DNA from: Syntrophales bacterium
GTDB lineage: Bacteria > Desulfobacterota > Syntrophia > Syntrophales > UBA2210
Assembly: GCA_963666365.2 (NCBI GenBank)
Contig: CAXXNF010000002.1
Span: 576,001-640,000 of the forward strand
Direction of reading: 5' to 3'
Length of the DNA stretch: 64,000 nucleotides
Shown here: positions 24,001 through 30,000 of the stretch, piece after piece
Layout: each line of letters begins with the position of its first letter
How positions within the stretch are numbered: the first letter of the stretch is position 1
Program-made: the position numbers

Positions 24001-27000
24001 CAGGGACAGTATACTTAATTATTTGGAATTAAGTATACTGTCCCCGGAATTGTGAATTACAGGAATATGACCGCCCACAGAATGAGAACGGCCAGCAGCA
24101 GGCCGACGATGAGGCTCGCCAGTCCGAATGCGGAGGCGGCAAGTTTTGTTGCTATTCCAGGATGTTCCCGCTTCAGATCGGCCAGTTTGCCTTCGGATAG
24201 AAGCCTCTCGTAGTGTTCCCGCTTATCTTCGTACAGTTCGTGAAGGGTGATTCTTCCCGTGAAGATGGTTCTGTCCATGGGGAATTTTTTCGGAATCAGG
24301 TGGGTATTGAAAAAATGCACCGTAAATATGAACAGCGCCGCCAGCAGCGCTTCCTCTGAATGCAGAAGGGCGGCCACATTCAGAACCCAGCCGGGGAACA
24401 GGTAGGAGGTCCATTCCGGGACCATGAGAAATATTCCTGACCCTCCTATGACCACCATGCCCCAGAAGACGGCGAGAAAGTCGAATTTCTCCCAGTAGGT
24501 CCATCGGTCAAATTTCGGCTGGTCCCCCCGGTTGAAAAACCATTTGAACATCCCCTTCATATCCTGCCAGTCTTTTAGATTGAAAAAGAGAGATTCCCTG
24601 CTGAACAGGCGTGTCAACCACCCGCTCCTTCCTTTACCGTTCTTTCTGAACAGGTAGCGGACAGAGCGCACCAGAATGTAGAAAAAGAGGGCAAAGAGGA
24701 GTAGCGCGGCAACTCGATGAAAGATGCCCGCCATATGCACGCCGCCCCATATGTCAATGAGAATTCTCGCCCAGGGAGCCTCGTGGTATTTCAGGGGAAA
24801 TCCCGTCGCTACAAGGGTCAAGAAGGATATCACCAGGATAATGTGGACAACAATGTCTTTTGTGGAAAAACGTTCAATTGATTGCAGACTTTCACTGTCG
24901 GACATGGGAAGGTGCGGTGTAATTCCCATTTTTTCCATATAGTGTTTGTCCCAGTAGGTTTTGCGCCACCAGAGGAAGGCGTGTATCCAGAAAAAGAGGA
25001 ATGTTGCCGCCAGAAGTCCGATCATGAAGACATTTGTCCAGTATAACGAGGGATAGCGCTTCCGGTTGCTGAAATCGGGGTGTGCCTGGTAGGCAACAAA
25101 GCGGGGATGGAAGCCGCTGTGGCACTTCCCGCAGTTTTCCACCAGGTTGCCGGGGTGAATCGATGATTCCGGGTTGTCTTTCGGAAGAATGTTGTGCGAT
25201 GTGTGGCAGTCGGCACATCCTGCAACCCGTGTCGGATTTCCGATGTCCTGGACTTTGCCGTGATACGTCCTTTTATAGGCGGCAACCGTCAAAGTGGAAA
25301 GATCGTTCCGAATCATCATTTCCGGGTCGTTGTGGCAGCGAATGCATGTCCGGGTGTAAAATTCCCGTGCCTCGGCGGGATATTCCTGCTGGGACGTATG
25401 ATACACATGGGTGCTGTGAAGTCCATGACAATCGGAGCAGGTTGCCGCATCTTCGTTTCCCTTCGCGACGGCCATGCCATGACCTGAATGGGCGTATTCA
25501 TCGTTGGAATGACACTCGGTGCATTGGTGGAGCGTTGCCGATTTAATGGATGCCTTTCGGGGCTGCACGGCGTGGATATTGCGATGACAGTCATAGCACT
25601 GAAAATCCTGATGCAGATAGTGATAATTGTGTAGGTATTCTTTCGCAATTTCGTTATGGCAGCTTCCGCAGGCCACAAGGGTGGATCGCGTCGTACCCGT
25701 CATGTGTCTCTCGATATCGGTGATATCGCTATGACAACTGACACATCCCTGGGCGCCGTGCACCGAGGCGGGGTAGGCGGTTCGATACAGGTAATCATCA
25801 TGACAGGAGAGGCAATTGACGGAAGTCGTCGCACCGGGATTGGTGTCACTGCGCTGTGTCTTCACTGAAGCAGAGGCCTGAGTGAAAATGCAGACCAGGA
25901 TGACTGCCACTGCAGTGATGAGGGAATAACGCATCGGTCCTCCGATCGTCAAGGTTCCGCCGTTCATCTATTTTATCCTTTTCTTGAAGGATCGCCAGTC
26001 GCTCATTCCACCAAACAGGCGCTGTATGTCCACCAGACCCCGTTCATAAAGGTAGCATGCGGCAAGAAAAGACCGGTGCCCCTGTTCATCCACCACAATT
26101 ATTTTCTTGTCCATGGGCAGTTTCCGGTAGGTGGCTTCGAGTTCATCGAGAGGACGGTTGATTGCGCCGGGGATGTGGTCTTTTTCGAAAAGATCCCTGG
26201 ACCGGATGTCAAGGATCAGGATGTCCTTCTTTTCGTTGATCCAGCGGTTCATCACTTTCGGTTTTATCGATTCGATTCCCACCCGGGGAATACGCGTTTC
26301 GGATTCAACGCCATACCCGCCTTCCTTCCAAGCGGGCAGGCCGCCGTCTAGGATATACACGTTTTGATAGCCAAGCTCACGGGCCTTACGGGCTGCGTGC
26401 ATACTTCGATGACACCCGATACTTGCACAGTAGATAATGAGCGGTTGGTCCTGATTTTGTATCATCTCGGGCGCCCTTTTTTCGAATTCCGGGCAGGGAA
26501 TACAAAGAGAACCTGGTATGCGGTGATCCCCGCATTCAATGGCACTCATGGTGTTGATGAAAAGGAGATCGTCTGTTGCCTGCATCATCCGGTGCGCTTC
26601 AATCGCCGTGATCAGCGGAGGTGTCTCCTCCGCGGCGATTGAAATGCCGGTTGCGGCGAACATGAAACACCACAGCGCCATAACCGCCCGCACGAGCACC
26701 CACTTATTTTTTACCGTCGGTGATTTCATCGGGTATGGGCACCTCTCTAAAGCCCCACTGGTACATCTGCGGTTTCGCATTCGGTTCCCTGGGGGTCGGG
26801 TAGTCTTCGACCAGGAAACGCCCGGGATTTGTAACCAGCATCTTCGTGAAAAAGGTGGATGTATCGGAATGACAGTCGTAACATCCTTCCGGTTTCCCCT
26901 TCGATCCGTAAGTCTTTCCTATATCGATGGGCACAATATTATGATGAACGGGAAAATTATGCGGATGAGCTGCGAGATGATCCTCATAGGTTGCCACGGC

Positions 27001-30000
27001 GCCGTCCTTCAGTTCGTAGATTTTGTCGGATACGAAGACCACGTTGCGGAACCCCATCTTTGTCAGCGCTTCGATCATCGTCTTGATCGTGTCATCCGTT
27101 GCGATGGTGGGGCGTGTGACCGCCTTGCCGGTGATATCCTTTACCTTCGCAAGAGTGGCGGTATTGAGACTCTCGTAAGCCTTTTTTACGTACTTGAGGA
27201 TGATCGGCCGGATTGCCATATTGTCCATCTTTTCACCGAACCACTGGGCAACTTTCGGAACAACGGGGATGTACTGTTCTCCGAGGCCGTTTCGCGCATC
27301 GTATCGGGTAATCCATGGTGCCCAGGGCTCCGGTGTAAGAATACCGAAATCGTCGCTCCAGGTGATGGTTTCCAGGGTACCCGCCGTGTACCAGACCTGC
27401 TTTCCCATCGACATGTCAAGCAGATATCCCGACATGGCCGGTTGTCTCGTAGAATGGCAGTTGGCACAGCTGATCAGATCGAAATGGAACATGGCGTCGG
27501 GGAATTTTTCTTTGTGAGTCTTCGTTGGATTTTTCGCCTCTTCCGGCATGTCCGGCCGCGTCGCCTGATATTTTCCTTCCAGATGGCACGCCGCACAGGT
27601 TTTCATCCCCACGCCGTCGAGATCATCACGCACGCTGCCCATCGGATGCCAGCCCTTTGCTATCTGATGTTCCAGGCGCTCTTTCTCGGTTGTTCCCACC
27701 AGGCTGTGACAGTCGGTGCATTGGAGCCCCGCCTTGTAATGGGCGTCATATTCCGGTTTGTGGACCCATCCGACTTTCTTCGCATCAGGTCCTTTGTGAC
27801 ATTGCAGACAACTTTTCGTTTCAACCGCCTTCGATATCACAGTGCCACGGAATCGGCCTTCCCTGGTAAAGATATTCCGATCATCCCAGTTGTAGGTGAC
27901 GGTCGGCCGTTCCGAAAAATTCCAGGTGCCCCTGAGAAAATCCTTTGATCCCGGGCCGGCGTCATTATCGGCATACGTGAAAATTGCGCCTTTGATTTTT
28001 CCGAGAACGGCGCCTGCCGTGGCGGCCCACCGGTAATTTCTCTTGTTGAGCTGCTGATTGCGGGCCCCGAAGCTGTACTCTTTCATGTGGCAGAGGAGGC
28101 AATCGGCTTCTACGACGCCGCTCTCCTTGAAATGACTCCTGCCGTCAGGGGTGAGATTTGACGTATAGTCTCCGTCAAGAGGATTTACGTTACGGCGCTC
28201 ACCTTCGATGAGATTCATGGAATAATCGGGGGCGCCGTCCCATTTTCTGCCGTATTCCATGGATGCGCCTCCGGGATGACACCATCCGCAGGAGGTTGAT
28301 TTTATTTTTTTTGCAGGATTTAATTTCCCGTAGCCACCGATCCAATCGTAGGCGGACAGGTCAATTTGCTTCGGATCATCGTTGTTTTTGCGGGCAACAC
28401 GGCCTGACCTGGTTGCAGGGGGTCACCACTTGCCGTACATGCCCGGCGATAACAGCCAGGGCTGCCTCGGGTTATACGTGTCGCTCATCTCCATGAAGCC
28501 CTGCTGGAAATGAAACCCCGAGGAAATAGTTGAGTAGGGATGACATCCGCCGCATGTCCTGCGAGGACTGTAGGGATCACCCTGATTCCTGTCCTGCGTG
28601 ATCTGTTCTCCCCGCTCGTTTTTCAATTTTACATCACGGTGAATTTCGGTTTTTGCGGATACTGAAGAATAGATAAAAACAATGGAAAAAACTGCGGCAG
28701 CTACTACAGACACCAACTTAGGTTTCATGAAGGCCTCCTGTCGGCACATTCAAGTTTAATCATTGGAGTAAGTAACCACATGCATCGGTAAGGCATTGTC
28801 AGTAGCCTCCAGTATACTGATTTCATGAGTTAGGTCAACGAAAATGAAATAGAAAAAGGGAAAGGGAAAGGGAAAGGGAAAGGCTGAAGCCCATCCCTGG
28901 ACACACTATCGCATCCCTCACAATGAGTTAGCGCGGGGCGCCCCCGGAATCCGCAATGTGCCTGCTGATGCCTCGTACTGTCTCCATGGCTGCAGTGATG
29001 TCGATGGTGCGAATAGTGCGATCTTTCATGATCACTTTCCCGTCGATGATTACCGTGGAGACATCCGATCCCGATGCCGCATAGACGACCTGCGAATAGG
29101 GGTTGTAGAGGGGCGTTAGATGGGGCTGATTCAGGTCGAGAAGGATGATGTCGGCCTTCTTCCCCGTTTCGATTGATCCGACGATGGGCTCAAGACCAAG
29201 CACCTTCGCTCCTCCTACGGTGGCCATTTCCACGACGGTTTGTGCATCCATCACCGTGGGATCAAGGGCTGCCACCTTGTGAAGCCTAGCCGCGGCGCCC
29301 ATCTCCCGTATAAGATCGAGATCGTTGTTGCTTGCACATCCATCGGTGCCCAGCCCCACCGTGATGCCCTGTGTAAGCATTTCAGGAATTGCTGCAATGC
29401 CGGCAGCAAGCTTCATTGAGCTTTCCGGATTGTGAGAGACTTTTGTGTCATGATCGGCCATAATGGACACTTCTTCCTCGTCAAGCCAGTTGCAATGTAC
29501 GGCCACCGTGTGTTCGTCCAGAACGCCCAGTGTATAAAGGTGGCGAAGCGGCGTGTTTCCGTAGCGTTCCTTAATATCGCTCACTTCTTCCTGCGTTTCC
29601 GAAAGGTGGGTCATAAAGAGCGTATTGGACCGGCGTGCGACTTCCTTGATGTCCTGATATGTGGCAGGTGAACAGGTATAGGGCGCGTGGCAAAAGAGGG
29701 CAGGGGTGATAAGGGGCGATGCTGCCCGCCAGCGGTCGATAAAGGCTTGAGCGACCTCCATATTTTTACTCGGATCAGGATTCCCCGGCGCCGGAAAATC
29801 GGTAAATCCCGCGCAGACCACACCGCGCATTCCCGATTCGACGGCTGCGTGAGCGATGCTTCCGGGGTAGAAATAGGCGTCGCAAAACGTTGTTGTTCCC
29901 GAAAGGATCATTTCGGCGATGGCAAGCCGGGCGCCGGCACGGCAGAAATCCCTGTTCACAAATGCGGCCTCGGCGGGGAAAATATGATTTGTAAGCCACT

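Follow-up and report, generated by a model that had tools for sequence, protein, structure and literature searches.

Multihaem selenoproteins are already known, with MccSep/ExtKL and the selenocysteine (Sec)-type octahaem tetrathionate reductases (OTR) as examples; the octahaem family that we describe here, together with its Sec site, appears to be undescribed. MccSep/ExtKL of Geobacter sulfurreducens (profile NF040886) is a Sec-dependent multihaem polysulfide reductase and, like the octahaem cytochrome discussed below, a periplasmic multihaem c selenoprotein with Sec in a G-U-P-type loop (PMC13510729). In MccSep/ExtKL this loop lies beside the active haem 2, a proximity that we infer for the octahaem cytochrome; a rhodanese gene (extH) is found nearby, as at our locus, and the protein acts in sulfur/selenium chemistry, as the octahaem cytochrome probably does. 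MccSep differs in having five haems and an Ig-like domain where the octahaem cytochrome has eight haems, and in carrying Sec near the C-terminus with a separate Cys ligating haem 2, whereas the octahaem cytochrome has no spare Cys: in its translation no Cys lies outside the eight CXXCH motifs. The NF040886 profile does not match the 674-aa protein, and the MccSep structure is absent among its fold matches. A first-pass annotation of the region had seen in it the same parts list as in the extHIJKL cluster; this is apt as an analogy, but homology to ExtKL/MccSep was supported by none of the tests run, and we read the likeness as one of function, not of family.

Other described systems resemble parts of the locus. 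The report on Dethiobacter alkaliphilus places an Otr/SirA-like octahaem gene, induced on thiosulfate, beside rhodanese genes (PMC10376724), which, likened by description alone, is the same pairing as in our cassette. CbcL of G. sulfurreducens has nine c haem motifs fused to a six-helix cytochrome b, as does, by architecture, the third gene of our locus (PMC9129911), which differs in being linked to one particular periplasmic reductase and to a rhodanese. The Sud/Psr system of Wolinella combines a periplasmic rhodanese with a terminal sulfur-compound reductase, as here. It is, however, a molybdoenzyme system, unlike the octahaem cassette.

The locus was studied within a window of 64,000 nucleotides, the whole stretch of Syntrophales DNA that was analysed, and comprises the following features:

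28811..28838, minus strand: promoter-like site TTGACC-16-TATACT, about 80 nt 5' of the start codon (consensus match only)
26704..28728 including stop, minus strand: gene of the predicted Sec-containing octahaem cytochrome c, 674 aa (frame read and translation)
28654..28728, minus strand: signal peptide, residues 1-25 (...SSVSA|KTE; from the translation, with a predicted cleavage site)
28540..28554, minus strand: haem motif 1, CGGCH, residues 59-63, 5' of the UGA (translation)
28423..28425, minus strand: UGA, predicted codon of selenocysteine 102 (U102) within the loop G-K-W-U-P-P (Cys/Sec at the same column in relatives)
28391..28406, minus strand: SECIS-like hairpin CAGGC-CGUGUU-GCCCG, its stem starting 17 nt past the UGA (comparison of 17 Sec-type genes)
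28387..28389, minus strand: codon of Lys114, candidate counterpart of the OTR haem-2 ligand Lys56 (family alignment)
28276..28290, minus strand: haem motif 2, CGWCH, residues 147-151, which co-varies with residues 101/102 (alignment)
26983..27243, minus strand: alpha/beta domain (residues 496-582) inserted relative to OTR, which lacks it
25968..26780, minus strand: double rhodanese with a signal peptide, probably periplasmic, 270-aa ORF (two Pfam rhodanese stretches)
24057..25967, minus strand: fusion of a nine-haem c domain with a cytochrome b membrane domain, CbcL architecture, 636 aa (nine CXXCH)

The cytochrome is encoded in a single frame running from 28728 to 26704 with one in-frame TGA, as seen in ORF lists made with and without TGA=U, in the sequence read and in the translation. 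It starts at the ATG at 28728, with AGGAGG 6 nt 5' of it, and its stop codon occupies 26706..26704; promoter-like consensus sites number 6 in the region against 4.8 expected. The TGA and the letters around it read identically in two public runs, each from a different study: contigs of run X1, which may itself be the source of the assembly, span the whole stretch with 0 differences, and record 6 of run X2 matches 28229-28760, likewise with 0 differences. The first-pass annotation had proposed one read-through 674-aa protein with Sec102, with the signal peptide and the first haem motif in the part upstream of the TGA, and both proposals agree with the single frame, the conserved TGA column and the translation (CGGCH at residue 59). 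The remaining CXXCH motifs are at residues 147, 210, 307, 337, 378, 421 and 616. The signal peptide has no lipobox Cys, and in the AF2 model of the cytochrome (pLDDT 87.4, pTM 0.87) its region is helical at 3-21 and has low pLDDT at 21-26. The alpha/beta insert is present in three copies in long forms (G007, G017).

Judged by its modelled fold, the octahaem cytochrome is a distant relative of Shewanella OTR (OTR superfamily). The sole Foldseek match at E <= 0.001 was OTR 1sp3 (E 3.9e-5), to which VIA-align gave Z 10.7 with an rmsd of 4.0 A over 319 residues, the runner-up reaching Z 3.9, and hhalign of the family against the OTR family gave 96.6% probability (E 6e-10) over a span covering haems 4-7. 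The fold and profile thus point to OTR and not to the earlier label 'c554-like', which corresponds to a generic 23-bit Pfam match. The joined 674-aa protein has no match at E <= 0.01 to the NCBIfam OTR profile TIGR04315, and a PDB sequence search with it gave none; the earlier statement that NCBIfam yields neither ExtKL nor OTR was reproduced, but it masked a real remote relationship to OTR. The eight CXXCH motifs follow one another in the same order in both proteins. The ligand count also agrees between the families: for eight haems, each offers seven invariant His outside the motifs (distal His), a single invariant Lys, and a Cys/Sec located between the first and second haem motifs. The OTR family is listed as a GenBank-annotated selenoprotein family in a 2026 selenoproteome review (PMC13188914); it has Sec-type members in Desulfobacterota, and 12 of 27 aligned loci carry TGA at the OTR Cys (NNF[C/U]I). 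The differences are nevertheless considerable. The structural alignment shows about 17% identity, OTR is about 440 aa long against 674 aa for the octahaem cytochrome, with its insert of about 90 aa and a longer haem 1-2 stretch, and the gene partners differ, a rhodanese and a CbcL-like fusion being found here. The Sec of the octahaem cytochrome precedes the invariant Lys in a loop opposite an OTR gap (in a low-confidence N-terminal alignment, 58%), whereas the OTR Cys/Sec lies 9 residues past the OTR invariant Lys in the alignment. The physiological substrate of OTR is described as unsettled, nitrite, hydroxylamine and sulfite each having been proposed (PMC12949373).

On comparative grounds, the octahaem cytochrome is very probably a genuine selenoprotein, as yet unannotated. 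If the UGA (context ...SPGMYGKWUPPATRSGR...) were a true stop, through a nonsense mutation or because there are two genes, the locus would make a 101-aa monohaem fragment and perhaps an unexported 518-aa piece. Public gene calls do split the gene, and most of the Syntrophales orthologs manage without Cys or Sec here, having Q, L, S or G instead, and still keep the whole cassette, so that Sec/Cys is not needed for the function of every member. A true stop is nonetheless very improbable, because the TGA is retained in all relatives of 69-85% identity with readable DNA, at one column in at least eight loci, with the protein conserved on both sides (among them G076, 84% identity; G093, 69%; G006, 70%; L062, 85%; L065, 69%; also L100 and L101). 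Conservation of the TGA also shows in the N-terminal truncation of all 13 same-clade database proteins (468-553 aa), such as gene callers that stop at the codon would produce, and in a separate 101-aa protein cluster ending in ...GKW. Four more sub-lineages, making five overall, have Sec at the loop position, as GKGU (G007, L102, L106; the TGA of G007 aligns with the Cys of GKGC forms), GKWUPPS (L099), GKFUPPS (L115, L152, L158) or GGRWUSP (L125, L133, L136), and dozens of homologs have Cys in this column, in forms such as GKWCPAA (P0030, P0031) and GKGCxP. Among metagenome loci of the wider superfamily, Cys is found at the loop in about 52 of 80 (GG[NT]WCSP forms) and Sec in 11 of 80; the first-pass remark that Sec/Cys is absent in most orthologs and not essential therefore describes the Syntrophales and does not extend to the superfamily. 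The 3' piece, moreover, has no signal peptide of its own and yet seven haem motifs needing export, and the genome has a complete Sec machinery, with selB (361 bits), selA (608 bits), selD (383 bits, with its own TGA) and a tRNA-Sec(tca).

The hairpin was the other ground for doubt. Taken singly it is weak, as had been noted before, and the weakest in its group: four of its five pairs form, an A.C mismatch is present, and the MFE of -8.5 kcal/mol corresponds to a z-score near +0.9. Other Sec genes in this genome reach -15 to -20 kcal/mol. Across 17 Sec-type genes, however, a hairpin is conserved in the same place, with 85.9% of cells paired against 67.9 +/- 3.1% after shuffling, a covariation score of 0.506 against 0.176 (neither reached in 500 shuffles), slid controls at 29-69%, and compensatory changes in three of the five pairs, which speak against a true stop. 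The mean fold of positions +13 to +45 is -9.5 kcal/mol in Sec types (n=17), and Cys types of equal G+C (n=55) average -4.2 kcal/mol; homologs with neither residue, however, do no worse here than Sec types, with -8.9 kcal/mol at higher G+C (p 0.19).

Residue 102 co-varies with the haem-2 motif, which probably places Sec at the catalytic haem. Rows with W101 have a CxxCH haem-2 motif in 62 of 62 cases, those with [G/D]101-C102 have Cxx[T/I]H in 11 of 11, and in all 24 rows with G101-G102 the motif is without Cys. Sec102 thus probably adjoins haem 2, on the strength of a covariation that represents few evolutionary events; the loop is poorly modelled (pLDDT <50 at residues 94-99). Lys114, which is K in 102 of 102 alignment rows with a residue, is a candidate ligand of haem 2, and hhalign at 58% probability sets the OTR Lys at residue 113 or 114.

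All three ORFs lie on the minus strand and have the content ascribed to them earlier (Sec-cytochrome, double rhodanese, c/b fusion of CbcL architecture), and the locus is, as far as sequence tells, a three-gene respiratory operon. The rhodanese (Pfam E 6.5e-30 over the two stretches) likely starts at Met18 (26729). Its first domain contains a Cys (YCASIGCHRS) along with an invariant C-X9-C, and in domain 2 an Asp occupies the active-site position; no more than about 14 of 20 orthologs retain the canonical rhodanese Cys. The start of the c/b fusion abuts the rhodanese stop codon, and in the membrane part of the fusion there are six more hydrophobic segments, besides a weak match to formate-dehydrogenase-gamma (residues 364-553). 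The order cytochrome - rhodanese - c/b fusion is intact in 20 of 20 loci examined and in metagenome loci of at least 49% identity with long enough flank; among metagenome loci, the WCSP subfamily (~30% identity) has no rhodanese neighbour. In other Syntrophales the cassette stands beside further multihaem cytochromes and ResB/CcsA genes, and GEGUGG-type cytochrome homologs, reported earlier near the orthologs, are found 1-2 kb upstream at 14 of the 20 loci.

Those neighbours, and the link of CbcL to extracellular electron transfer in Geobacter (PMC9129911), would suit a module serving mainly as an electron conduit to acceptors outside the cell, partner organisms or other reductases of the periplasm, with Sec/Cys102 as an axial ligand tuning the haem 2 potential and the rhodanese as an accessory or regulatory protein. 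Many orthologs without Cys/Sec, some even without the haem-2 cysteines, still keep the cassette. We think a conduit unlikely, given that organisms normally bear the expense of Sec for the sake of catalysis, that the enzyme nearest in fold has an open catalytic haem, and that the rhodanese is kept throughout the 20 loci; a partial look at the loci read showed no outer-membrane conduit gene. The same cassette might instead work oxidatively, with thiosulfate, sulfide or polysulfide oxidised at haem 2 and electrons passing via the c/b fusion to the quinone pool, in a TsdA-like manner. Nothing in the sequence fixes the direction, and multihaem sulfur enzymes with Cys at the active haem, TsdA and SoxAX among them, are often reversible (PMC13510729). 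This too seems improbable to us, as CbcL-type proteins are described as quinol oxidases supplying periplasmic acceptors (PMC9129911), and as hosts that are strict anaerobes of a syntrophic order, with no obvious high-potential acceptor in the cassette, would hardly favour it.

Reduction of a nitrogen oxide (nitrite or hydroxylamine), with the sulfur context incidental, would accord with the haem and ligand layout in common with OTR and with the in vitro activity of OTR enzymes, highest on nitrite and hydroxylamine (PMC12949373). Against it stand the rhodanese, conserved and periplasmic, and the reactive Cys/Sec in the pocket, both of them hallmarks of sulfur/selenium chemistry (PMC13510729), and adjacent nitrogen-cycle genes are absent within the window; we hold it to be quite improbable.

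The reading that we favour, with rather better than even confidence, is a three-gene operon with a Sec octahaem enzyme of the OTR superfamily that reduces a sulfur compound via haem 2. It has direct support from the frame, the Sec machinery, the interchange of Sec and Cys, the conserved hairpin, the OTR relationship, the haem-2 covariation and the gene order; the position of Sec at haem 2, the ligation by Lys, the direction of electron flow and the substrate are what we infer. In this operon, UGA102 would be decoded as Sec with the help of the small hairpin 17 nt downstream, and Sec102, in the mobile loop G-K-W-U-P-P between haem motifs 1 and 2 and 12 residues before K114, would probably extend into the pocket of haem 2, the presumed catalytic haem, which is without a conserved distal His. 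Electrons from menaquinol may pass through the cytochrome b domain and nine c haems of gene 3, as in CbcL, to the octahaem enzyme, while the tandem rhodanese of gene 2 may bind or pass sulfane sulfur, as Sud does with Psr or ExtH with ExtKL. The selenolate would attack an S-S (or Se) bond and the adduct would then be reduced via haem 2, polysulfide/persulfide, thiosulfate or tetrathionate being the likeliest substrates. The earlier suggestion of a sulfur or selenium substrate was a reasonable one, and the octahaem cytochrome probably reduces a sulfur compound, be it polysulfide, thiosulfate or another.

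The cytochrome is a 674-aa octahaem c-type protein encoded on the minus strand together with a double rhodanese and a fusion of a nine-haem c domain with a cytochrome b domain, and its reading frame is interrupted by a single TGA codon.

Features of the cytochrome gene and of the cassette (window coordinates unless residues are stated)
28838-28811, minus strand: sigma-70-like site upstream of the cytochrome ATG
ATG 28728 to stop 26706..26704, minus strand: cytochrome ORF, with AGGAGG before the ATG; 674 aa when read through
28425..28423, minus strand: sole internal TGA of the cytochrome ORF, U102 in SPGMYGKWUPPATRSGRVARKNN
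Residues 59, 147, 210, 307, 337, 378, 421 and 616, from the translation: eight CXXCH motifs of the cytochrome
25968-26780, minus strand: double rhodanese, 270 aa, with its own signal peptide and two PF00581 stretches (E 6.5e-30)
24057..25967, minus strand, directly at the rhodanese stop: c/b fusion, with nine CXXCH motifs and six more hydrophobic segments after the N-terminal one

Upstream of the TGA the ORF encodes the N-terminal signal peptide and haem motif 1; downstream of it lie the other seven haem motifs, without an export signal of their own. The letters over the TGA are identical in contigs from two public runs belonging to two studies, one of which may be the source of the assembly. 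In the translation every cysteine lies within a CXXCH motif and none elsewhere, so that a selenocysteine (Sec) at position 102 would be the sole free chalcogen of the protein. An alpha/beta domain of about 90 residues is inserted at about 487-582 (496-582 by a narrower reading); its fold matches are weak (Z < 4), all of them small alpha/beta domains, and it occurs in three tandem copies in long forms of the cytochrome, namely in the orthologs of two sampled genomes of the order (locus L049 of G007 and L050 of G017) and in database proteins of 860-910 aa.

Comparison with relatives makes it very probable that the cytochrome is a genuine selenoprotein. The genome encodes the machinery for Sec insertion, i.e., SelB, SelA, SelD (which has a TGA of its own) and tRNA-Sec, the in-frame UGA is flanked on both sides by coding sequence conserved with the relatives, and homologs carry Cys at the UGA column in GKWC, GKGC and GG[NT]WCSP forms. 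A homolog of the cytochrome is present in 70 of 201 genomes of the order, the present one included, and in four of the 70 (G000, G076, G093 and G006, from three genera) a TGA stands at the identical column in the context GKW(TGA)PPA; it is also found there in two more genomes, from the species collection (L062, L065), and in two metagenome contigs (L100, L101). In a FastTree phylogeny of 129 sequences, which is midpoint-rooted and thus does not fix the direction of Sec/Cys changes, the GKW(TGA)PPA sequences form one clade with support 97. The remaining 13 members of this clade are database proteins cut to 468-553 aa, the length that gene callers produce at the TGA, and a cluster of 101-aa proteins ending in ...GKW is the matching upstream fragment. 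The sister group includes two full-length GKWCPAA proteins, and the TGA of G007, in GKG(TGA)TPG, is nested among GKGCxP forms.

The same loop was followed in 80 metagenome loci, retrieved by a search whose query aligned four distant representatives truncated at the N-terminus. In-frame TGA codons occur there as GKWUPPS in L099, GKFUPPS in L115, L152 and L158, GGRWUSP in L125, L133 and L136, and GKGU in L102 and L106. Among these loci, taken as the top matches of a single query alignment rather than at random, 11 have Sec, about 52 have Cys (mostly as GG[NT]WCSPAP), about 15 have neither and 2 were not classified. The first-pass annotation had stated that Sec or Cys is absent in most orthologs; this holds within Syntrophales, where most orthologs indeed lack both, and it fails for the metagenome loci. 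Internal TAG or TGA codons in the homologs of G149, G200, G135, G097 and G145 were considered as further recoding sites and proved to be natural stop codons, leaving neither a second recoding site nor pyrrolysine. The ortholog of G185 (L055) changes frame soon after its GKGG loop, by a frameshift or an assembly error.

The hairpin expected behind a Sec codon had been called weak, and for the cytochrome taken alone this is correct. The single-sequence fold behind UGA102 has an energy of -9.9 kcal/mol (z +1.6) and is not better than shuffles, and 60-nt folds from the same genome give -20.4 for selD, -15.3 for the GEGUGG cytochrome (a separate Sec-containing cytochrome) and -18.2 for the OTR-like gene versus -8.5 kcal/mol for the cytochrome. 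The assessment does not extend to the family, since an alignment of 17 Sec-type genes that represent five sub-lineages (A6) shows a conserved, covarying stem. This stem of 5 bp, at columns 20-24/31-35, starts 17 nt past the UGA and closes a loop of CGUGUN or AGUU(G). Pairing is found in 85.9% of cells versus 67.9 +/- 3.1% in shuffles, a value reached by 0 of 500, even with three GGRWU sequences that pair one register off scored as partly unpaired; slid controls are 29-69% paired. Compensatory changes are seen at three of the five pairs, and the arms are encoded by different codons in each lineage (S-G-R-V-A, S-S-Q-L-A, F-R-Q-L-A, P-Q-L-A). The cytochrome of the window forms four of the five pairs, with one A.C mismatch. 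All seven Sec-type genes compared for this share the codons GGC CGT .. GCC, which vary in non-Sec orthologs. The mean fold energy of the +13..+45 segment is -9.5 kcal/mol for Sec types (n=17) versus -4.2 for Cys types (n=55) at equal G+C content (Mann-Whitney p 3e-7, which is overstated since the sequences are related). There is no such difference between Sec types and the GC-richer homologs with neither residue (-8.9 kcal/mol, n=43, p 0.19), and this comparison does not support specificity of the fold to Sec types. A long-range pairing enclosing the UGA in the cytochrome was dismissed because, judged by eye, it is not conserved in G076.

To which family the protein belongs is not apparent from domain databases: Pfam and NCBIfam return only generic multihaem matches, and the match to the c554 domain (PF13435; 23.1 bits, E 1.5e-4, residues 306-349) is overlapped by stronger ones of this kind. 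The fold matches of the cytochrome model include no c554 structure, and neither the protein nor the family profile retrieved anything useful from the PDB sequences. The structural model nevertheless leads, with high confidence, to the superfamily of octahaem tetrathionate reductase (OTR) of Shewanella (PDB 1sp3, NCBIfam TIGR04315). The AlphaFold2 model built from 99 sequences has a pLDDT of 87.4 and a pTM of 0.87, with loop 94-99 below 50, and its single Foldseek match in PDB at E <= 0.001 is 1sp3 (E 3.9e-5). VIA-align superimposes residues 26-667 of the model on residues 1-435 of the chain with Z 10.7 and an rmsd of 4.0 A over 319 residues, the next match having Z 3.9. Profile comparison by hhalign with an OTR-family alignment built from 27 Desulfobacterota loci aligns haems 4-7 at 96.6% probability (E 6e-10); an N-terminal hhalign alignment of only 58% probability matches haems 1, 2 and 3 with each other and places the invariant Lys of OTR at residue 113 or 114, and the residue equivalences with Lys56 and the Cys of OTR are therefore tentative. 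Both families have seven invariant non-motif His for eight haems (H30, 73, 330, 354, 405, 415 and 596 in the cytochrome) and, in the stretch that separates haem motifs 1 and 2, one invariant Lys (K114 in the cytochrome) as well as a Cys or Sec.

The two families also differ in several respects. OTR has about 440 residues and the cytochrome 674, the alpha/beta insert (496-582) being one of the differences, and the cytochrome has no TIGR04315 match at E <= 0.01 (curated cut-off 375 bits), which places it outside this equivalog family. In OTR, haem 2 is reported to be bound by C74xxC77H78 and Lys56 (PMC3769277); K114 of the cytochrome would be the candidate equivalent of this Lys. The Cys or Sec of OTR follows the Lys, whereas the Sec of the cytochrome precedes it; the cytochrome has no Cys at the place of the OTR motif NNF[C/U]I after the Lys, and its Sec loop lies opposite a gap in OTR in the low-confidence N-terminal alignment (58%). 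Of the OTR-family loci of Desulfobacterota (L069-L098), 27 were aligned; at their invariant NNF[C/U]I motif, which precedes the haem-2 motif by about 10 residues, 12 have TGA and 15 have Cys. Sec-type OTR is therefore common in the phylum, and the OTR family is listed among GenBank-annotated selenoprotein families in a 2026 review of selenoproteomes (PMC13188914). The genome itself contains a homolog from the OTR family proper at C1:117305-118655, minus strand (loci L067/L068), in two pieces that score 337.6 and 191.4 bits and so fall short of the cut-off. At the position of the family's conserved Cys/Sec it reads TGA (..NNL(TGA)VT..), and it also carries a further in-frame stop, as well as a frame change near a CHFFGGGG motif; either decay of a Sec-type OTR gene or a faulty assembly might account for this.

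The proposed placement of residue 102 is based on its relation to the haem-2 motif in 107 homologs of at least 600 aa. Residues 101 and 102 follow this motif with no exceptions, in what are few evolutionary events: all 62 rows with W101 have CxxCH, all 11 with [G/D]101-C102 have Cxx[T/I]H, all 24 with G101-G102 have a motif devoid of both cysteines and the one row with A101-C102 has CxxYM, and the G-U forms of G007, L102 and L106 are paired with CGWTH. Such covariation would be hard to explain unless residue 102 stands against haem 2. Haem 2 is also the haem without a conserved distal His, and its counterpart in OTR is the catalytic haem. On these grounds we infer that Sec102 lies in the haem-2 pocket, and it is rather likely that the Sec acts at this haem. 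H199 was considered as the absent eighth distal ligand and rejected, since this residue varies between His (67 of the 107 rows) and Arg (37 rows) and does so independently of the haem-2 motif.

It is conceivable, if improbable, that Sec102 is itself bonded to haem 2, as the distal axial ligand in one form and, in the sister forms that combine G-C/U102 with C-x-x-T-H, as a stand-in for the lost second cysteine of the motif. The first case would make haem 2 a selenolate-ligated c-type haem, which is not known from nature. In the second, residue 102 would complete a split haem-binding motif, (C/U)-X44-C-x-x-T-H, which would be served by the pair of ResB/CcsA genes found beside the cassette in several genomes, and the family would record a stepwise rewiring of haem attachment and ligation from CxxCH with U/C through CxxTH with U/C to no Cys. 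In at least L046, L050 and L057 the c/b fusion is followed, after about 2 kb, by ResB/CcsA-like maturation genes; the loci bearing these genes include some with non-canonical haem-2 motifs (CGWTH, SGWMH), and the genes might encode a dedicated haem lyase. Action of the Sec at haem 2 remains the reading that we favor.

The order of the cassette is kept in 20 of 20 loci examined with 8-kb flanks, irrespective of residue 102, and the cassette is also found in metagenome loci of at least 49% identity whose flank is long enough; the WCSP subfamily (about 30% identity) has no rhodanese neighbor. In the rhodanese the active-site position reads YCASIGCHRS in domain 1 and is Asp in domain 2. About 14 of 20 orthologs retain the canonical Cys, and a C-X9-C pair of domain 1 (IEC.DHRIPGS.C) surpasses it in conservation, being invariant in 20 of 20 (alignment A4). 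Domain 1 resembles the NCBIfam family 'rhodanese_LYCAU (seleno)protein' with 63.8 bits versus a cut-off of 115, and has YCAS where the family name suggests YCAU. The c/b fusion has a weak match to formate dehydrogenase gamma (cytochrome b; TIGR01583, E 3.4e-5) and, by its motif and segment counts, shares the architecture of Geobacter CbcL, which has nine c haems and a six-helix dihaem b domain (PMC9129911).

In 14 of the 20 loci a homolog of the GEGUGG cytochrome (about 30% identity) and another rhodanese-like gene stand just upstream of the cassette. This upstream part is missing at the locus in the present genome and at the other GKWU-type loci (L042-L044); here the GEGUGG cytochrome is 1.4 Mb off, with cytochrome b and ResB/CcsA. 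It lies at C2:about 2010500-2015900, minus strand, has 587 aa when read through and a clear 7-bp hairpin past its UGA, and is followed by a 207-aa cytochrome b and preceded by ResB/CcsA-like genes. The immediate flanks of the cassette, two paralogous minus-strand ORFs of 446 and 440 aa upstream (28928-31600) and a minus-strand ORF of 463 aa downstream (22268-23659), resemble by eye amidohydrolase-type proteins and dihydrolipoyl dehydrogenase, and they are not conserved beside the cassette in other genomes.

The cytochrome is probably the terminal enzyme of this quinol-linked three-gene module. Its substrate is harder to name, and we give about even chances to a sulfur compound, i.e., polysulfide or persulfide, thiosulfate or tetrathionate, with selenite also possible. 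A sulfur compound is suggested by the conservation of the rhodanese with the cytochrome, by the reactive chalcogen placed in the pocket and by two precedents: MccSep (ExtKL) of Geobacter, a multihaem cytochrome selenoprotein, for Sec-dependent sulfur reduction (PMC13510729), and an Otr/SirA-like octahaem protein of Dethiobacter encoded beside rhodanese genes and up-regulated on thiosulfate (PMC10376724). Against it stand the lack of Cys or Sec in most Syntrophales orthologs and the disputed physiological role of OTR, with nitrite, hydroxylamine and sulfite among the proposals (PMC12949373).

Multihaem cytochrome selenoproteins as such are already known, as MccSep/ExtKL and Sec-type OTR, and only in 2026 was the sulfur reductase long sought in Geobacter identified as MccSep (PMC13510729). 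MccSep/ExtKL has five haems, a C-terminal Ig-like domain with a DGUP loop and a haem-ligating Cys, whereas the cytochrome has eight haems and no extra Cys; in NCBIfam it has no match to NF040886 (MccSep/ExtKL), and MccSep structures are not among the fold matches of its model. The cytochrome-type selenoproteins in the consulted text of the 2026 review are the OTR family, ExtKL and the GSU2204 family, and nothing there matches the cytochrome family (PMC13188914). In the literature, taken without the supplements of PMC13510729 and PMC13188914, which may list relatives, and in NCBIfam, we found no description of the family, its Sec site, the haem-2 covariation or the rhodanese/CbcL cassette, and every close database entry is a truncated gene call.

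The locus thus points to a second Sec-cytochrome family, unrelated to MccSep and apparently unannotated, which comprises 940 clusters at 50% identity in a profile search of public data and whose Sec forms are systematically split by gene callers. An annotation rule could be derived from the pattern [WFG]-[U/C]-x-P ... A-x-K-x-N combined with the hairpin. In this family a Sec or Cys would be brought to the catalytic haem of an OTR-type scaffold from a loop other than that used by OTR itself, a hint that the pairing of a chalcogen nucleophile with a multihaem active site has evolved more than once. The syntrophic Syntrophales, supposedly not sulfur-respiring, would gain a candidate quinol-linked reductase of sulfur compounds, which may bear on cryptic sulfur cycling in methanogenic sediments and digesters.
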